Positions 27,356-39,098 are shown, counted from the first letter of the stretch. The stretch: DNA of 41,587 bases from a virus (IMGVR_UViG_2541047938_000008:1-41587); one strand, 5' to 3'. Numbers and translations: made by a program. Notes: generated by a model from the sequence alone, not told the origin.

Positions 27356-27431
27356 TGGTGCTGGTTAACGGACTTGAACCGCTACCCATTCGCTTACAAG
27401 GCGACTGCTCTACCATTGGAGCTAAACCAGC
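27356..27431 (-). tRNA. tRNA-Thr (anticodon UGU), phage-encoded
   Basis: Hand-folded cloverleaf: 7-bp acceptor stem, D-arm GCTC/GAGC, anticodon loop CTTGTAA, T-arm AGCGG-TTCAAGT-CCGTT, CCA. Confidence 0.6.
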
Positions 27432-27436
27432 ATATT

Positions 27437-27511
27437 TGGCGGGACAGCGTGGACTCGAACCACGATAAGAAGGTTAACAGCCTTCCGTAATGACCTTTAT
27501 ACGACTGACCC
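27437..27511 (-). tRNA. tRNA-Asn (anticodon GUU), phage-encoded
   Basis: Hand-folded cloverleaf: anticodon stem GAAGG/CCTTC, loop CTGTTAA, T-arm CGTGG-TTCGAGT-CCACG, CCA; one U-U mismatch in acceptor stem and 4-nt variable loop. Confidence 0.5.
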
Positions 27512-27785: not shown

Positions 27786-28409
27786 CTAACGTGTGACCGC
27801 ATTCAAAATGTTGTCTGCGATTGACTCTTCCTTGTGGCATTGCACCACCAGAGCGTCATACAGCGGCTTAACAGTGCGTGACCAGGTGGGTTGGGTAAGG
27901 TTTGGGATTAGCATCGTTACAGCGCGATATGCGGCGCTTGCTGGCATCCTGGAATAGCCGACGCCTTTGCATCTTCCGCACTCTTTCTCGACAACTCTCC
28001 CCCACTGCTCTGTTTTGGCAATATCAACGGCCCGGCCAGTACCGTGGCAATCTCTGCATCTTGCGCCCGGTGTCGCGGCACTACGGCAATAATCCGCATA
28101 AGCGAATGTTGCGAGCACTTGCAGTACCTTTGCCTTAGTATTTCCTTCGAGCTTTGCCACACCACGGTATTTCCCCGATACCTTGTGTGCAAATTGCATC
28201 AGATAGTTGATAGCCTTTTGTTTGTCGTTCTGGCTGAGTTCGTGCTTACCACAGAATGCAGCCATTCCGAATCCGGCTTGTGATTGCGCCATCCCCATAG
28301 CAGCCATCACATCAGTACCGGAAAGAGAGTCAGAAGCCGTGGCCCGTGGTGAGTCACTCATCATCGGGCTTTTTGGCGAATGAAATTTAGCTACGCTTTC
28401 GAGTCTCAT
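27786..28409 (-). CDS. Q: Late antiterminator Q (lambda type)
   Basis: 207 aa, near-identical to lambda Q including the zinc-binding CRDCHGTG...CGRCKG. Confidence 0.9.
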
Positions 28410-31607: not shown

Positions 31608-33044
31608 TCAGAATCCTCCTTTCTTCTTGGACTGCGGTTCCTCGCGTTCACGGCGGCGCATTTCAGCAGACTGTTGGTCTGTGTCATAAATAGCGCCATT
31701 TGCCTGAATGCAATACACCGTGCCGGTATTGCCATGACGATTGAGACGAAGGATTAGTTCAGTTTCACCAGGTGGAACACTGTCATCAAAAGCGCCTTCA
31801 CGATGGATCCCGACCCAATAATCGCAATCCTGTTCAATCTGCCCTGTATCTCGTGAGTCACTTGGTAATGGGCGTTTATTGGTTCGGCTTTCCAGTGCGC
31901 GGTTAAGCTGTGTCAGAAGCACAACAACGCAATCAAGCTCTTTGGCAAGGTTCTTCAGTCCTTTGGTGATCATGCCGTAAGCAAGGTCGTTGCGATCGGC
32001 CTTCTCAGCGGTCATTAGTGTCAGGTAATCGACCAGAATCATGCCAACACATCCTTTTTCTCGCTTGATTCGACGGCTTTCGCTGACGATTTGAGCCAGA
32101 GATAATCCCGGCGTGTCGTCGATGTAAAGCATGTCGATTTCACTCAAGCGATTTGCTGTTTCTATCGCCCTGTTGAAGTCACCATCGTAATCACCCTGAT
32201 AGCCGTCATCAGCGTCATTTGTCGCCGGAAGGTAAAAAATATTCGGGTTAACACCTGACTTCTGTCCTACCAGCTTTTCCAGTATCTGGTCGCCTGGCAT
32301 TTCAAGACTGAACATCAGAGCGGGCTTTTTCTCATGCACTGCGCAGTTGATTGCCATCTGGCTGTATAGCGTCGTTTTCCCCATCTTAGGGCGAGCGCCA
32401 ATGACGAACAGAGAGCCTTTCACCAGACCTTTCGGTGACAGCATCCTGTCCAGAGATGGGATCCCTGTGCTCATTCCTCGTTGTTCGCCTGACGGGTCAA
32501 ATCGCTTCTCAAGGTCGCTAACCCAGTCTTCCATGACCTCACCAAATGAGCGAAGGCCGCGACGCGATCCGGTTTTTGCATGGTCTGTCAGTTGCGTGAA
32601 AATCGCCTGAATAGCTTCGTACTTCTGCGTTGCAGTCATTCCGTTGCGGGAATAGAGCAATTCCGTCGCTTCAGTCATGCGGTTTATGGCGTAGCGTTCC
32701 ATTGCGGTTTCGCGAACCTGCATTGCATAGGCAACGATGTTTGCGGCGCTCGGCGTGTTCTTTGCGATCTCAGCGATATAAGCAAAACCGCCAACAGACG
32801 CCGTTAACGATTTACGCTCCAGTTCATCGAAAAGCGTCAGGCCATCTACTGGCTTTTGCTCCCGGTGCATTCTGGTTATTTCTTCGAAAAGGATTTTGTG
32901 TGGTCGGCTGTAAAATGAATCGGGCTTCAGCATCGCCAGAACTTTCTGGACGCGCTCACTGCTGTCATCATCCAGAAGCAATCCACCAATCACCGCCTGC
33001 TCTGCCTCGATGCTATGGGGCGGCGCATAAAAATTATCGGTCAT
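31608..33044 (-). CDS. Replicative DNA helicase (DnaB family, P22 gp12-like)
   Basis: N-terminal DnaB domain and C-terminal RecA-like ATPase (Walker A GARPKMGKT). Confidence 0.85.
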   Translation of the reverse strand: MTDNFYAPPHSIEAEQAVIGGLLLDDDSSERVQKVLAMLKPDSFYSRPHKILFEEITRMHREQKPVDGLTLFDELERKSLTASVGGFAYIAEIAKNTPSAANIVAYAMQVRETAMERYAINRMTEATELLYSRNGMTATQKYEAIQAIFTQLTDHAKTGSRRGLRSFGEVMEDWVSDLEKRFDPSGEQRGMSTGIPSLDRMLSPKGLVKGSLFVIGARPKMGKTTLYSQMAINCAVHEKKPALMFSLEMPGDQILEKLVGQKSGVNPNIFYLPATNDADDGYQGDYDGDFNRAIETANRLSEIDMLYIDDTPGLSLAQIVSESRRIKREKGCVGMILVDYLTLMTAEKADRNDLAYGMITKGLKNLAKELDCVVVLLTQLNRALESRTNKRPLPSDSRDTGQIEQDCDYWVGIHREGAFDDSVPPGETELILRLNRHGNTGTVYCIQANGAIYDTDQQSAEMRRREREEPQSKKKGGF

Positions 33045-33933
33045 CGTGTTCACCCTCACGAACTTTCAGGTAGGTATTATCGTTAAGCAGGAAATCAAAT
33101 CCCTTTTTGTGCCAGACGGTTCCGCGTTGATGGTTTGGGCGCTCTTCGAACATCCATCGGCAATTTTCGCCAACGTAGCTCAAATAATTTCTCCAGTCCT
33201 GCATCGTGAACCCATGCCCGTCAAGCTGGCGGGTTATCACTCCGGCTTTGCGCCAGAACGTTCGGATCTGGTTTTTACGCTTGTCATTCAGTGCGCGGAT
33301 TCTTGGAGCTTCAGGAAGGATTTCGTGGTAAGCATCGACAACATCCTGACAGCTGACGGAAGGTTTTTTCTTGTCAGACTTTTTGTCTGCTGTGGCACTC
33401 TCTAATACGTCAGTATTAGAGATAATATTATTATATTCTTTATCTGTGGTAATTTGCTGGTAATCTGCTGGTACAGCATTGCTTACAGGCATTGGTATTG
33501 CTGGCTTTGAGGTGGTAATTTGCTGGTAATCTGCTGGTACAAAATTTGACTGATAATCGTCATATTTCTCTACCGAGAAAACTGAGAATTTACCGTGTGA
33601 AACCCAGTCAATCATGCCGAGTTTTTTGAACTTTCTAAGCAGGTACTGAACGCGATCTGGTTTGAGTCCTGTTTCAAACGCCAGAGAGTTTCTACCGCCA
33701 AGTAGCTTCCCTCTGCCTACCAGAATTTCTCCTGCGTCAGTCATTACATACTCAGGCGTATGCTTTGCTTTGAGGATTAAGTGAACCCACAGATGCGCTG
33801 CTTCTGCATCCTTGTAAAACGGCACATCCATAATTTTACGGTGCAGCAAGGCATACCCCTTACCGCTGCTTTGATGCGGTTGTTGTAGCCTTCTGGCCTC
33901 TCTGGCTTCGGCTAGATTAGATATGTTACTCAT
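33034..33933 (-). CDS. Replication initiator (lambda O / P22 gp18-like) containing the origin
   Basis: 299 aa, position upstream of the helicase; iterons inside the coding sequence. Confidence 0.75.
33415..33545. repeat. Origin of replication: iterons plus AT-rich tract
   Basis: Two 29-bp direct repeats TGGTAATTTGCTGGTAATCTGCTGGTACA built from TGGTAATNTGC units, adjacent to an AT-rich stretch. Confidence 0.7.
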
Positions 33934-34072
33934 GACCTTTCTCCTTCTGCATCAGCTTCACTTTTTCCAACTCAGCCCGGAATCGACCAGGCTGCTTGAA
34001 GCTGGACAGGAAGCGATCACGTAGTATGTGTTTGTGAATTTTGTCCTGGTAAGGACTGAGTTGTTTTGTCAT
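33926..34072 (-). CDS. Hypothetical small basic protein between cII and O
   Basis: 48-aa ORF found by hand, stop overlapping the O start (ATGAGTAA). Confidence 0.3.
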
Positions 34073-34104
34073 AATTACTCCTGTGGATTGATCCAGTAAT
34101 TCCC

Positions 34105-34401
34105 TCAGAATTGCATATCAATTTGCTTAAAATCCTCGGTGGCGGCCGGGGATTTTTTCTTTGTGATTTCATCAAGCGCATACTTAAAAGCCCTGCTAAT
34201 CGGACTGATGTCTGATGCCATTCCGAAAGCACACAAGACCGAAGCAATAAATCTCCAGTCCGTTCTGCTTATCTTCGATTCATGACAGCCAATCATCTTT
34301 GCCAGACCGCGCTGGGTAAGCGTTGACAGGTTGATGAGTAAATCAGTTTCAGCGCGATCAATTTCTCGCTGTGTTGGCTTGCTGTAGCTTGCTTGTGCCA
34401 T
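34105..34401 (-). CDS. CII-like transcriptional activator (lambda CII / P22 C1 family)
   Basis: C-terminus [18 protein letters not shown] resembles lambda CII; position directly after cro. Confidence 0.7.
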
Positions 34402-34467
34402 TTGTTAATTTTCCTATATTGATATTGAGTTATAGCGGCACACCCAATGGATTTGCCGCTGATGTTT

Positions 34468-34510
34468 GCTCACCCGGTTAGAGGTGAAAGGCCAGAACTG
34501 TTAAAGAGCA
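34468..34510 (-). promoter_or_regulatory. nutR (boxA plus boxB hairpin)
   Basis: Minus-strand TGCTCTTTAACA followed by a TCACC...GGTGA hairpin, downstream of cro. Confidence 0.5.
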
Positions 34511-34516
34511 ATTTGC

Positions 34517-34702
34517 TTATGCCGCTTGGCGGTAAGCACTTTCTTGATACTTCAGGGCGCCAGCTGTAACGATTTCCAATCGATAGGCGTCTTTCTCTGG
34601 GATAACTTCTTTCCACTGAGAGACTGCTGCATCGCTAATGCCTAGTGCTTTAGCAACAGCACGCTGGGTTCCGAAGTGGTCAATAACATCTTTTTTGTAC
34701 AT
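34517..34702 (-). CDS. cro: Cro repressor (P22 type)
   Basis: 61 aa, MYKKDVIDHFGTQRAVAKALGISDAAVSQWKE... Confidence 0.9.
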   Translation of the reverse strand: MYKKDVIDHFGTQRAVAKALGISDAAVSQWKEVIPEKDAYRLEIVTAGALKYQESAYRQAA

Positions 34703-34782
34703 AGACTCGCTCCGAAATTAAAGAACACTTAAATTATCCACCAAAGGAATCTTAAGTCAAGTTTATTTAAGATGTCTTAACT
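34703..34782. promoter_or_regulatory. OR operators with divergent pR and pRM
   Basis: P22-type operator half-sites (ATTTAAGATGTCTTAA and AAGAACACTTAAAT) between divergent cro and c2. Confidence 0.7.
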
Positions 34783-35433
34783 ATGAATACACAACTGATG
34801 GGTGAGCGTATTCGCGCTCGCAGAAAAGAACTCAAGATTAGGCAGGCTGCCCTTGGCAAGATGGTTGGCGTGTCTAATGTTGCTATTTCCCAATGGGAGC
34901 GATCTGAAACTGAGCCCAATGGCGAAAACCTATTGGCCTTAGCCAAGGCTTTGCAGTGCTCCCCTGATTACCTGTTGAAAGGAGAGGATAGTCTTTCAAA
35001 CATTGCCTATCACAGCAGGCATGATCCAAGAGGTTCGTATCCTCTAATTAGTTGGGTAAGCGCAGGATGTTGGATGGAAGCTGTAGAGCCATATCATAGG
35101 CGTGCAATAGATAACTGGTACGACACAACGGTAGATTGTTCTGAAGACTCTTTTTGGCTCGACGTTAAAGGCGATTCAATGACTGCCCCGGCAGGACTGA
35201 GTATTCCTGAGGGGATGATTATTCTCGTCGACCCAGAAGTCGAACCACGTAATGGAAAGCTGGTAGTCGCCAAACTTGAAGGGGAAAACGAGGCGACATT
35301 CAAAAAGTTAGTTATTGATGCCGGTAGAAAATTCCTGAAACCACTCAATCCACAATACCCAATGATTGAAATCAATGGGAACTGTAAAATCATTGGCGTT
35401 GTCGTTGATGCCAAGCTAGCAAACCTTCCTTAA
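34783..35433 (+). CDS. c2: Prophage repressor C2 (P22 type, LexA-like autocleavage domain)
   Basis: 216 aa, near-identical to P22 C2 (MNTQLMGERIRARRKELKIRQAALGKMVGVSNVAISQWERSETEPNG...). Confidence 0.95.
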   Translation: MNTQLMGERIRARRKELKIRQAALGKMVGVSNVAISQWERSETEPNGENLLALAKALQCSPDYLLKGEDSLSNIAYHSRHDPRGSYPLISWVSAGCWMEAVEPYHRRAIDNWYDTTVDCSEDSFWLDVKGDSMTAPAGLSIPEGMIILVDPEVEPRNGKLVVAKLEGENEATFKKLVIDAGRKFLKPLNPQYPMIEINGNCKIIGVVVDAKLANLP

Positions 35434-35637: not shown

Positions 35638-35747
35638 CCAGAACTTGAGTGGTTTTGGGGATGGCGCGAATTGCAGCTGCAAGACAGCGATCGAGAAGAT
35701 AAGCACCTCGACGCGTCATGCGCCAAAGCCACTTAAAGGAGACCATC

Positions 35748-36053
35748 ATGGTAACCATTGTCTGGAAAGAATCCAAAGGTACGGCAAAAAGCCGCTACAA
35801 AGCTCGCAGAGCAGAACTTATTGCCGAGCGACGCAGTAATGAAGCACTGGCGCGAAAAATTGCGCTAAAGCTCTCTGGTTGCGTCAAAGCAGACAAAGCA
35901 GCATCACTAGGAATCCTTTGCTGCAAGAAGAAAGAAGAAGTTGTTCGAAAAAATAGAAGTATTTATTACAAAGATTCAAACCCATTAGGAAACAAAATAC
36001 ATGCAGTCCAAAAAATAAAATTGTACAGTAAACTACCGTACGGTGCTTATTGA
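35748..36053 (+). CDS. N-like early antiterminator (P22 gp24 family)
   Basis: Arg-rich motif GTAKSRYKARRAELIAERR near the N-terminus, strong SD AAGGAGA, position after pL/nutL. Confidence 0.6.
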   Translation: MVTIVWKESKGTAKSRYKARRAELIAERRSNEALARKIALKLSGCVKADKAASLGILCCKKKEEVVRKNRSIYYKDSNPLGNKIHAVQKIKLYSKLPYGAY

Positions 36054-36878: not shown

Positions 36879-37943
36879 ATGTCGCTCGTAACTAAACAGG
36901 AGCCGACTTGTTCTGATTATTGGAAATCTACTTTGCCCTCCAGTGTGAGGGCAATTTTTTTTGATGGAGGATATATGAGTGAAGTAACAGATTTAGTTGT
37001 TATTGAAAAAGCAAATGCAATGACTGTATTTCAGTCTGCCGACCAGATTGAAGAAATTCTCCAAAAGGTTGAACGTGAAGTTATGTCCTTTGTGCCTGAT
37101 ATCACAACGGCAAAGGGCAGAAAGGAGATCGCTTCTCTGGCGTATAAAGTTGCGCAGACGAAAACATATCTCGATGGTCTTGGCAAAGACCTTGTTGCTG
37201 AACTGAAGGAAATTCCAAAGCTAATTGATGCCAACCGCAAGACAGTGCGTGATCGCCTTGATGAGCTGAAAGCCAAGGCACGCCAGCCTCTTACTGATTA
37301 TGAGGAAGAACAGGCGCGGATTAAAGCCGAAGAAGAAGCTAAGGCAGCAGCTGAAGCTATCGCAAAGCAAATTGAGTCTGACCATGAAATAGCGATTTTG
37401 ATGGATCGCGAATTTGACCGCCAAAGAGAAGAGGCAAGACTCAAAGCGGAGCAGGAAAAGCGAGAGCATGAAGAACGCTTAAAAAGAGAAGCTGAAGAGA
37501 AAGCCAGAGCTGAAGCCGAAGCAAAGGCAAAAGCCGAAATTGAAGCAGCAGCAAGGCGAGAAGCAGAAGCTAAGGCAGCAGCGGAACGTGCAGAGCGTGA
37601 ACGCATTGAAGCCGAGCAACGAGCACAGCGCGAAGCAAAAGAGGCAGCAGAACGAGCTGAAAGAGAAAAGCAGGCGGCAATTGAAGCAGAACGCCGAAAA
37701 GCACAGGAGGAGGCTGAACGAATCCGGCGCGAAGCTGAAGCAAAAGAGCAAGCCAGAATAGCAGAAGAAAAAAGAATCAAGGACGAAGAAGAGCGTAGAG
37801 CAAAGGATAAAGCTCACCGGAAAGAAGTAAATAACAAAATACTTGCTGACCTTATCAAGGTTGGTGCATCAGAAGATGTTGCTAAAAATATCATAACAGC
37901 CATCGTAAAAGGCGAAGTATTCGCAACAAAAATAACCTACTAA
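36879..37943 (+). CDS. Hypothetical protein with a long E/A/K/R-rich single-helix region
   Basis: 354 aa (323 aa if started at MSEVTD, 36975); about 150 aa of charged helix with DNA-level internal repeats; SD and hairpin upstream. Confidence 0.6.
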   Translation: MSLVTKQEPTCSDYWKSTLPSSVRAIFFDGGYMSEVTDLVVIEKANAMTVFQSADQIEEILQKVEREVMSFVPDITTAKGRKEIASLAYKVAQTKTYLDGLGKDLVAELKEIPKLIDANRKTVRDRLDELKAKARQPLTDYEEEQARIKAEEEAKAAAEAIAKQIESDHEIAILMDREFDRQREEARLKAEQEKREHEERLKREAEEKARAEAEAKAKAEIEAAARREAEAKAAAERAERERIEAEQRAQREAKEAAERAEREKQAAIEAERRKAQEEAERIRREAEAKEQARIAEEKRIKDEEERRAKDKAHRKEVNNKILADLIKVGASEDVAKNIITAIVKGEVFATKITY

Positions 37944-38492: not shown

Positions 38493-39098
38493 ATGAGCAA
38501 AGAATTTTACGCAAGACTGGCAGCTATTCAGGAGAATCTGAACGCGCCAAAGAATCAGTACAACTCATTCGGCAAATATAAATACAGAAGCTGCGAAGAT
38601 ATTCTTGAAGGCGTTAAGCCGTTACTGAATGGTCTGTTTTTATCAATCAGCGATGAAGTTGTGTTGATTGGTGATCGGTATTACGTGAAAGCCACGGCAA
38701 CTATTACCGATGGCGAAAACAGTCATACGGCAACCGCTCTTGCACGAGAGGAAGAAAGCAAGAAAGGAATGGATTCTGCACAAGTTACGGGAGCTACAAG
38801 CTCTTATGCACGCAAGTATTGCCTCAATGGTTTGTTCGGCATTGATGATGCGAAAGATGCAGATACCGACGAGCATAAACATCAGCAGAACGCAGCAGCA
38901 AAGCAATCAAAACCATCACCTACACCTGAACAGGTTCTAAAAGCATTCACTGACGCAGCATTGCAGAAAAACACCGTGGAAGAGCTTAAACAGGCGTTCG
39001 CCAAAGCGTGGAAGATGCTCGAAGGCACACCGGAGCAGCACAAAGCGCAGGACGTTTACAACATCAGACGAGACGAATTAGAAGGAGCTGCTGCTTAA
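38493..39098 (+). CDS. erf: Erf single-strand annealing recombinase
   Basis: MSKEFYARLAAIQENLNAPKNQYNSFGKYKYRSCEDILEGVKPLL matches P22 Erf. Confidence 0.85.
   Translation: MSKEFYARLAAIQENLNAPKNQYNSFGKYKYRSCEDILEGVKPLLNGLFLSISDEVVLIGDRYYVKATATITDGENSHTATALAREEESKKGMDSAQVTGATSSYARKYCLNGLFGIDDAKDADTDEHKHQQNAAAKQSKPSPTPEQVLKAFTDAALQKNTVEELKQAFAKAWKMLEGTPEQHKAQDVYNIRRDELEGAAA

Follow-up and report, generated by a model that had tools for sequence, protein, structure and literature searches.

The Locus

The DNA analysed here, called the window in what follows, is a stretch of 41,587 nucleotides representing a P22/Sf6/IME10-like prophage, which lies beside a tRNA-Arg(CCT) and a gene of the formate/nitrite transporter family. 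It carries an integrase (1209-2402), a gtrABC-like cluster for O-antigen modification (2836-5530), a tailspike of the P22 type (5568-7499, minus strand) and the antiterminator Q (27786-28409, minus strand), downstream of which two tRNA genes are located. In the early region the genes cro, cII, orf48, O, a DnaB-type helicase and ninB follow each other in this order on the minus strand, with cI on the plus strand. The gene for the transcriptional activator cII occupies positions 34105-34401 (Pfam Phage_CII, E 3e-33). The replication initiator O at 33034-33933 encodes 299 amino acids of the HK022 type, is recognised by PHROG 345 ('replication initiation O-like', E 1e-87) and is annotated as O in mEp235 and VT2-Sakai. 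In the position of P a phage-encoded replicative helicase of the DnaB type is found at 31608-33059 (Pfam DnaB, E 3e-31; DnaB_C, E 3e-60). All three are on the minus strand.

Between cII and O a short open reading frame had been pointed out by an earlier reading of the sequence alone, which described it as a basic protein of 48 amino acids encoded on the minus strand. An open reading frame listing of the window returned exactly the peptide quoted there, starting with ATG and occupying positions 33926-34072 of the minus strand with the stop codon included, and its placement between the two neighbouring genes was correct. The product is indeed basic, with 12 lysines and arginines versus 6 aspartates and glutamates and an isoelectric point of 10.1. 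The start codon at 34072-34070 is preceded at a spacing of 5 nt by a Shine-Dalgarno sequence AGGAG (34078-34082), seen in the sequence and in the alignment to lambda. By itself the length of the frame is only weakly unusual: when the 179-nt cII-O interval was shuffled, 4.7% of the shuffles contained an ATG-initiated frame of at least 45 codons in a sense frame. That orf48 is more than a chance frame follows from comparative evidence, namely the Pfam match, the conserved length and junction, and purifying selection specific for the frame.

Identity and Previous Annotation of the Gene

The peptide matches the Pfam family PF10872 (DUF2740) over profile positions 1-43 of 43 with 99.4 bits (gathering cut-off 27, E 8.9e-29), and PHROG 1913, which bears the label 'tail protein', with 98.7 bits (E 2.7e-28). 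It agrees with the DUF2740 consensus at all invariant columns, including the HK.ILRDR.L core and the KGHE end. Score, a single domain of about 47-48 amino acids and the location from cII/oop to O with an overlap of the O start all place it in this family. Proteins 100% identical to that of the window are encoded by HK022, HK620, HK630, mEp235 and VT2-Sakai. In public records the gene is found as ORF48 or orf48 in P22, H0097 'HK022 Orf48' in VT2-Sakai, hkaW in HK620, gp43 in mEp235, orf66 in Stx2 phage 86 and orf28 in SE1, and the NCBI pipeline (RefSeq) annotates a 'DUF2740 family protein' in 400 of 5,426 complete Escherichia coli genomes. The frame in the window is therefore the orf48 of lambdoid phages of the P22/HK022/HK620 type, a real gene which is already known. 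That the gene carries a name and an annotation had escaped the sequence-only reading. Its finding was correct but not new, as the frame is the long-annotated orf48 (DUF2740).

The label 'tail protein' of PHROG 1913 and of RefSeq records is not credible. The gene is located in the early replication operon in every locus, encodes 48 amino acids only and resembled no tail protein in structure searches; the label seems to be a mistaken annotation which passed into RefSeq records.

In the literature searched, no reported function, phenotype or experiment at the protein level was found for orf48. No paper was found under the name DUF2740, and a search for hkaW gave unrelated word matches only. The layout cII-oop-"orf"-O-P and the absence of orf48 from lambda have been described by Hayes et al. 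2012 (PMC3349717). The gene appears simply as part of the construct in a P22 cro-c1-orf48-O-P phagemid (PMC8585504) and as part of a c1-orf48-18 replacement (bioRxiv 2023.08.15.553423). An 'orf48' occurring in accessory-gene screens (PMC12373910 and a related preprint) is a library index (gnarl1, lytic phages), and the supplements contain no DUF2740 sequence.

Predicted Structure and Family Searches

Structure prediction by AlphaFold2 from the family alignment yielded a hairpin of two helices, comprising residues 7-23 and 28-44, with a mean pLDDT of 79, as the predicted fold of the basic product. Members of the family occur only in lambdoid phages of Enterobacterales. When 1.84 billion representatives were searched with a profile of the family, 17 matches were obtained, which were members of the same small family, fragments and artefacts, among them a repeat protein (P0060) and a read-through artefact of cII into orf48 (P0061); an informative domain fusion was not among them. 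Fold and profile searches gave no functional lead. Membership in the helicase loader families (lambda P, DnaC/IstB-like) was considered and rejected for this hairpin of 48 amino acids, as no similarity was detected in Pfam, NCBIfam or PDB. This argues against family membership only and not against an accessory role of the protein. An FtsH inhibitor of the Lambda_CIII type was likewise dismissed, a Pfam scan up to an E value of 1 giving only DUF2740 and a sub-threshold match to DUF896. PADLOC gave no match.

Conservation and Selection

A search of 5.8 billion proteins yielded 55 relatives, all of them belonging to PF10872, all from Enterobacteriaceae and nearly all 47-48 amino acids long. For comparison at the DNA level about 180 orf48 loci were gathered from species genomes, IMG/VR viral contigs, annotated phages and assemblies encoding divergent members. 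Of 179 related loci, 175 have a frame of 47-48 codons, and in 178 the last 8 nt of the frame read ATGAGTAA. Frame and overlap with O are conserved in phages of E. coli, Salmonella, Klebsiella, Citrobacter, Pluralibacter, Atlantibacter and Erwinia, the Erwinia phage protein retaining the 8-nt overlap at 58% identity. Length changes occur as whole codons only (variants of 47, 48, and 54 amino acids), and the identical peptide is encoded by many distinct DNA sequences.

In a minimum spanning tree of 34 distinct sequences the pN/pS ratio was 0.33 in the annotated frame compared to 1.3-1.7 in the two shifted frames. For codons 10-40 in the centre, which overlap neither the promoter nor the O translation start discussed below, it was 0.24. 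Substitutions at the three codon positions numbered 74, 49, and 114, the third position being the richest. For the excess of synonymous change a one-sided binomial test gave p values of about 1e-16 to 1e-18, which are approximate since the edges of the tree are not fully independent. Conservation in related elements and synonymous-site analysis were among the checks named by the sequence-only reading, and both came out in its favour: the frame is kept in related phages with the same overlap with O, and synonymous changes are in excess. From these comparisons the peptide is judged to be under purifying selection, and orf48 is very probably a real translated gene.

The Start Region and the OOP RNA

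In an alignment of the window to positions 38539-38839 of lambda, homology runs through the 3' end of cII, the whole OOP RNA template, the Shine-Dalgarno sequence and ATG(ACAAA), and then ends; at the start of orf48 the window has AATTACTGGATCAATCCACAGGAGTAATTATGA and lambda has CATTACTGGATCTATCAACAGGAGTCATTATGA. As the homology stops at this point, orf48 uses the translation start of lambda O, a gene whose translation is established. The ribosome binding site of orf48 is also given as the positional homologue of that of lambda O by Hayes et al. 2012 (PMC3349717, legend to Fig. S1).

On the plus strand the template of an OOP-like antisense RNA is predicted at 34083-34160 from homology to lambda oop, a terminator scan and RNA folding. 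Its 5' end at 34083-34086 adjoins the Shine-Dalgarno sequence of orf48, and it overlaps the final approximately 55 nt of cII. The terminator consists of a stem of 12 pairs at 34129-34156 and a T-run, and the RNA is predicted to fold into two hairpins (z = -4.2). This is the layout known from lambda, with an RNA of about 77 nt antisense to the 3' end of cII, an intrinsic terminator and a start beside the Shine-Dalgarno sequence of the next gene. The putative promoter pO of this RNA, derived from reading the sequence and from the lambda alignment, is located at 34047-34075 of the plus strand inside codons 1-9 of orf48. It has a weak -35-like hexamer TGGTAA (34047-34052) and an extended -10 element TGTCATAAT (34067-34075), the CAT of which is the complement of the orf48 ATG. 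A promoter scan using the strict consensus did not pick it up. A terminator-like hairpin at 34043-34056 of the plus strand, which overlaps the putative -35 element, is probably a chance match. An Rfam scan of 33500-34900 with E values up to 1 gave chance matches only, and Rfam contains no OOP family.

In the RefSeq record of P22 positions -3 to +26 of orf48 are annotated as 'oop promoter', and the 3' end of c1 contains an 'oop terminator'. According to Hayes et al. 2012 (PMC3349717) the -10 region of pO is shared, and the -35 regions are specific for the module. Experiments have detected OOP RNA in two phages carrying orf48, P22 and BTP1, and in P22 its 5' end is located 14 nt upstream of ORF48. 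The complement of the first approximately 26 nt of orf48 would serve as promoter region of the predicted OOP RNA opposing cII. This putative second use of the 5' end had also been overlooked by the earlier reading.

The Junction with O

The start codon of O is at 33933-33931 and the stop codon TAA of orf48 at 33928-33926, so that the two genes share the 8 nt ATGAGTAA (33926-33933, minus strand). The statement that the stop of orf48 overlaps the O start codon needs to be modified accordingly: the genes do overlap, but the TAA lies 2 nt downstream of the ATG and not on it. A Shine-Dalgarno sequence of its own, AAGGAG, is available to O at 33941-33946 of the minus strand, inside codons 43-44 of orf48 and 7 nt before the ATG; relatives of the P22 type have GAGGA at this position. 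The last approximately 20 nt of orf48 (codons 43-48) hold both the Shine-Dalgarno sequence and the ATG of O, which accounts for the nearly invariant C-terminus KGHE and for the fact that every partner O begins with MSN.

Folding of the messenger RNA suggested a long hairpin between 33927 and 34026 of the minus strand (z of the minimum free energy fold -3.3, pair map), which has to be regarded as hypothetical. In this fold orf48 codons 16-20 (34026-34015) would pair with the region of the O AUG (33937-33927), CGUGAUC of codons 18-20 pairing with GGUCAUG at the O start and CUUC with the Shine-Dalgarno sequence of O. Among 25 distinct sequences the helix over the O AUG is kept in 97.5% of cells and is almost invariant, and the helix over the Shine-Dalgarno sequence is paired in 76% and broken in about half of the sequences. 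No measure of covariation for the hairpin over the O start rose above the shuffled controls in these 25 sequences.

A stop codon overlapping the start of the downstream gene with a conserved geometry of 8 nt is the arrangement of a coupled pair and fits termination-reinitiation. Judged by sequence, coupling of orf48 and O, which the earlier reading had taken for granted in calling the frame translationally coupled, is plausible, albeit unproven. On its face it is not required, as O has a good Shine-Dalgarno sequence of its own. A programmed frameshift fusing orf48 to O was rejected, there being no slippery heptamer at AAAGGTCATGAGTAA and O having its own Shine-Dalgarno sequence and ATG.

Mosaic Joints and Partners of the Slot

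Identical orf48 DNA is found joined exactly at ATGAGTAA to two unrelated N-terminal domains of O, which makes this sequence a mosaic joint. The N-terminus of O downstream of orf48 was of the lambda/P22-like Phage_rep_O type (MSNLATV...) in 104 loci and of the HK022 type in 70 loci, and at least four different types of O C-termini occurred. Upstream of orf48 at least three types of cII/oop 3' sequences were seen. One locus (L180) has a ParB-like gene between cII and orf48, with orf48-O left intact. From these sequence comparisons orf48 appears as a separate mosaic unit which stays with O rather than with cII.

Which genes may stand at the conserved ATG, in the slot between oop and the replication module, was surveyed in 120 loci on viral contigs. 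These were seeded on the conserved block of oop 5' end, Shine-Dalgarno sequence and ATG, and loci without orf48 were thereby included. In 33 classified loci O itself stands at this ATG and is followed by lambda P (31 loci) or a DnaC/IstB-like loader (2 loci). With orf48 at the ATG, 23 loci could be classified, and here the gene after O encodes either a Toprim+AAA primase-helicase or a DnaB-type helicase belonging to one of two families. The same three types of O/helicase modules were found in 37 classified loci which have Gp53 of HK97 in the slot. Further cargo included a 47-amino-acid frame in one locus, probably a distant relative of DUF2740 (hhalign 85%), and a 214-amino-acid T5orf172/MUG113 gene inserted at the ATG in three loci. 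A DnaB-type helicase is likewise present in divergent orf48 loci of Klebsiella, Pluralibacter, Erwinia and others, and two checks starting from the helicase (Cronobacter ENT47670 and Stx2a_F349) found a slot frame in both cases, one of them unannotated. In the sampled loci neither orf48 nor Gp53 ever preceded a module with lambda P or a DnaC-type loader.

Orf48 and Gp53 are not homologous by these analyses: the hhalign probability is 0.5%, and the likeness is limited to the first approximately 11 residues, which overlie pO. The association of slot frames with helicases is perfect in the samples, but few independent combinations of modules underlie it, about three types of O/helicase modules combined with two or three families of slot frames, and it is a lead and not a proof of function. 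It could have arisen without any function if the junctions share a common ancestry. The presence in the same slot of two unrelated families of reading frames, and sometimes of a T5orf172 gene, fits 'exchangeable cargo' as well as 'replication accessory'.

Interpretation

Taken together, orf48 is probably a small protein-coding gene forming the first cistron of an orf48-O-helicase cluster in the early rightward (pR) operon. A small early protein would be translated from what was ancestrally the start of O, and the coding sequence would double as promoter of OOP and as translation start of O. Ribosomes ending at the UAA, 2 nt past the O AUG, might aid translation of O by re-initiation, and they might in addition or instead open the helix in which the O AUG pairs with orf48 codons 18-20. 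That translation of orf48 helps translation of O has a somewhat better than even chance. The product itself may act as an accessory factor of replication modules which bring their own helicase. This suggestion derives from slot frames preceding O and a phage helicase or primase-helicase in every classifiable locus, whereas loci beginning with O have loaders, and it is put forward tentatively, the odds being rather against it. More specifically, orf48 and, by convergence, Gp53 might be dedicated accessories, serving either as an adaptor by which O recruits or loads the phage helicase or as an inhibitor of host DnaB/DnaC. Inhibition of the host DnaB/DnaC pathway would be affordable only to phages carrying their own helicase. 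A dedicated accessory would explain why slot frames never occur with lambda-P or DnaC-type modules despite the same flanking recombination block; in this specific form the proposal is unlikely.

Three other explanations have to be weighed against these. The peptide may be functionless and only the act of translating through may matter, orf48 being a leader which delivers ribosomes to O and bridges the conserved oop/pO/Shine-Dalgarno/ATG block to those O genes for which this ATG cannot be the start. The start region being that of lambda O, the exact end of orf48 at the conserved joint, and the predicted pairing of the O AUG with codons 18-20 would all suit such an adapter, as would the unrelated Gp53 of similar size (53 amino acids, 14-nt overlap) which fills the slot before the same O/helicase modules. 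However, purifying selection specific for the frame is strongest in the central codons, which overlap no known signal (pN/pS 0.24), motifs such as HK.ILRDR are retained in phages from E. coli to Erwinia across numerous synonymous changes, and O has a Shine-Dalgarno sequence of its own, so that a mere leader is quite improbable. Conservation might, in a still more reduced reading, stem from overlapping nucleic acid signals alone, that is pO, messenger RNA structure and the O start, with the frame being incidentally open. Such signals do lie at both ends of orf48, the sequences of helix 1 are invariant including the third position of a CGT codon, the N-terminal MTK..YQ(D/E)K, which the unrelated Gp53 has as well, overlies pO, and about 5% of shuffles yield a frame of such length. 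Yet this leaves unexplained the concentration of substitutions at third codon positions (74/49/114), pN/pS values above 1 in the shifted frames, and the same start and stop with an open frame in about 180 loci in which insertions and deletions comprise whole codons only. Nor does the RNA structure show covariation, and an incidental frame is hardly credible.

That the protein functions and has nothing to do with replication is a different matter. Orf48 might be exchangeable cargo, a small early protein acting on the host or on the decision between lysis and lysogeny, for example by modulating CII or its proteolysis, in host takeover or in counter-defence, with the conserved 33-bp oop/pO block as the hotspot of exchange. 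Small basic helical proteins are typical phage effectors. The alternative unrelated occupants of the slot (orf48, Gp53, the 47-amino-acid variant and the 214-amino-acid T5orf172/MUG113 gene), the very narrow family with its 17 matches among 1.84 billion representatives, and the vicinity to cII and oop point in the same direction. What speaks against cargo is that orf48 has neither promoter nor terminator of its own inside an essential replication operon, that it stays with O where cII has been separated (L180), and that it was never seen with modules of lambda P or a DnaC loader, which share the flanking recombination block; PADLOC gave no match, and Pfam none to Lambda_CIII or any regulator family. 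A role as cargo is considered unlikely. The reading of orf48 as first cistron of the replication cluster, translated into a conserved protein, is retained here.

As a discovery the gene matters little, since P22 and HK022 have had orf48 in their annotations for decades, a Pfam family exists for it and the NCBI pipeline calls it as a matter of routine. Its analysis is an example of how conservation and synonymous sites can validate, from sequence alone, a reading frame below the size cut-off, and it flags a wrong 'tail protein' label spread through RefSeq phage records. It provides a lead for the function of DUF2740, which about 7% of complete E. coli genomes encode, as do model phages such as P22, HK620, Sf6-like and Stx phages. 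The one mildly new point is the exclusive association of slot frames with self-encoded helicases, a strict co-occurrence suggesting a testable role in the initiation of replication. With coding sequence, putative antisense promoter and downstream translation start, the 147 nt would have three uses, illustrating the compact organisation of phage genes.

Comparison with Known Systems

With the orf48 of P22, HK022 and HK620 there is no substantive difference. The P22 protein is 85% identical to that of the window. In this group, as seen in mEp235, VT2-Sakai, P22 and HK630, the gene likewise stands between cII/oop and O and overlaps O by 8 nt; the copy in the window precedes an HK022-type O and a DnaB-type helicase in a P22/Sf6-like prophage. 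In IME10, a relative of the window prophage, an 'Orf53' of the Gp53 type occupies the slot before the same O and P genes. Gp53 of HK97 (the 'Orf53/orf54' family, 53 amino acids) uses the same slot and the same Shine-Dalgarno sequence and ATG over pO and also overlaps the O start. It differs in that the overlap is 14 nt instead of 8 nt and that it has no Pfam family.

Classical coupled pairs (ATGA overlaps, trpE-trpD, trpB-trpA) resemble orf48-O in having the stop within a few nucleotides of the downstream start in a conserved geometry. In contrast to them, O has a strong Shine-Dalgarno sequence of its own, and the putative occluding structure lacks support by covariation.

The reference for the start region is lambda, in which the 3' end of cII, the OOP template with its terminator, the -10 region of pO, the Shine-Dalgarno sequence and ATG(ACAAA) are homologous to the window. 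In both, OOP starts beside the Shine-Dalgarno sequence, and pO is located within the first codons of the gene at that ATG. In lambda this ATG opens O itself, and the partner P is a loader of host DnaB. In the window, unlike lambda, the ATG opens orf48, O follows with its own Shine-Dalgarno sequence, and the partner is a phage helicase.

Annotation of orf48 in public records

In the PHROGs database (PHROG 1913) and in several RefSeq phage records, namely NC_019708 (mEp235 gp43), NC_002371 (P22 orf48), NC_019723 (HK630) and NC_070949 (an Erwinia phage), the DUF2740 gene to which orf48 (33926-34072, minus strand) belongs is labelled 'tail protein'. Despite this label the product has 48 amino acids and comes from the early replication operon, and the label looks like a misannotation that has been propagated. 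In other records the gene was missed. The 48-aa reading frame was matched by tblastn at 85-100% identity in NC_002166 (HK022), NC_042346 (BTP1), NC_004348 (ST64T), AP000363 (VT2-Sakai) and M10074 (P22), where the sole feature under the match is the O or gene 18 coding sequence, and it is therefore unannotated in these five.

A 100% identical copy of the orf48 region, annotated as 'DUF2740 family protein', was found in Escherichia coli DH5alpha (NZ_CP026085.1, 1450445-1450615). It presumably lies on a resident lambdoid, phi80-derived prophage and would suit experiments. The database relatives of orf48 include a few variant proteins (P0061, 152 aa; P0001, 58 aa; P0056, 77 aa). One of the variants, P0061, is a read-through fusion of cII and orf48, one carries an internal duplication of 10 residues, and some are calls extended at the N-terminus. 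All of these are probably due to frameshifts or miscalled starts and do not reflect biology.

The strand opposite orf48

A lambda-type OOP antisense RNA unit is predicted on the opposite strand at 34047-34160 (plus strand). Its putative promoter has an extended -10 element, TGTCATAAT, at 34067-34075 inside the first codons of orf48, its predicted 5' end at 34083-34086 adjoins the Shine-Dalgarno sequence of orf48, and its terminator at 34129-34156 lies within the 3' end of cII. The unit is covered by no Rfam family.

A 14-nt inverted repeat, GTCCTGGTAAGGAC, at 34043-34056 (plus strand) overlaps the putative -35 element of this promoter. It corresponds to the codons for SP(Y/D)QD and was scored as terminator-like in the terminator scan. 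P22-type relatives have GTCCTGGTCAGGAC at this site, which is a better inverted repeat. The repeat may have arisen by chance or may be a protein-binding site.

Other features of the window

The left end of the window (1-5530) looks like a prophage junction, with a gene of the formate/nitrite transporter family (1-933), a tRNA-Arg(CCT) (1009-1083), an integrase gene (1209-2402) and a cluster of gtrA/gtrB/gtrC-like genes for O-antigen glucosylation (2836-5530). The phage also carries two tRNA genes of its own at 27356-27511 (minus strand), tRNA-Thr(TGT) and tRNA-Asn(GTT), which closely follow the Q antiterminator gene (27786-28409) and precede the lysis genes. Two plus-strand reading frames of the early-left region, of 354 aa (36879-37943) and 111 aa (35718-36053), gave no Pfam match at E values up to 1e-4; the latter occupies the position expected for an N-like antiterminator.

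Other occupants of the orf48 position

The position between the oop block and O is also used by a family unrelated to orf48, that of HK97 Gp53 ('Orf53'), which has 52-53 aa and belongs to no Pfam family. Its members start at the conserved ATG of orf48, overlap O by 14 nt and precede the same O/helicase modules. They were found in HK97 itself (L181, 1221-1382), in 37 of the 120 loci seeded on the conserved oop-5'/SD/ATG block (L182-L301), and in two further loci (L304, 1220-1381; L303, 1170-1328); in Cronobacter phage ENT47670 the reading frame is present and unannotated. Mobile-type genes are attracted to this position and its surroundings: L224, L262 and L289 have a 214-aa gene with a T5orf172/MUG113 domain, inserted upstream of O at the conserved ATG, and an HNH and NUMOD4 homing-endonuclease-like gene lies between O and the primase-helicase gene in L217 and L240. 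In L217 the position itself holds a 47-aa reading frame, MPKKHAVYQAEMHKNIARIELCKGF..., ahead of a 289-aa O. Judged from profile alignment (hhalign probability 85%, 33% identity), it is a probable distant relative of DUF2740, from which it differs in lacking the GRFRAE segment and in overlapping O by only 4 nt.
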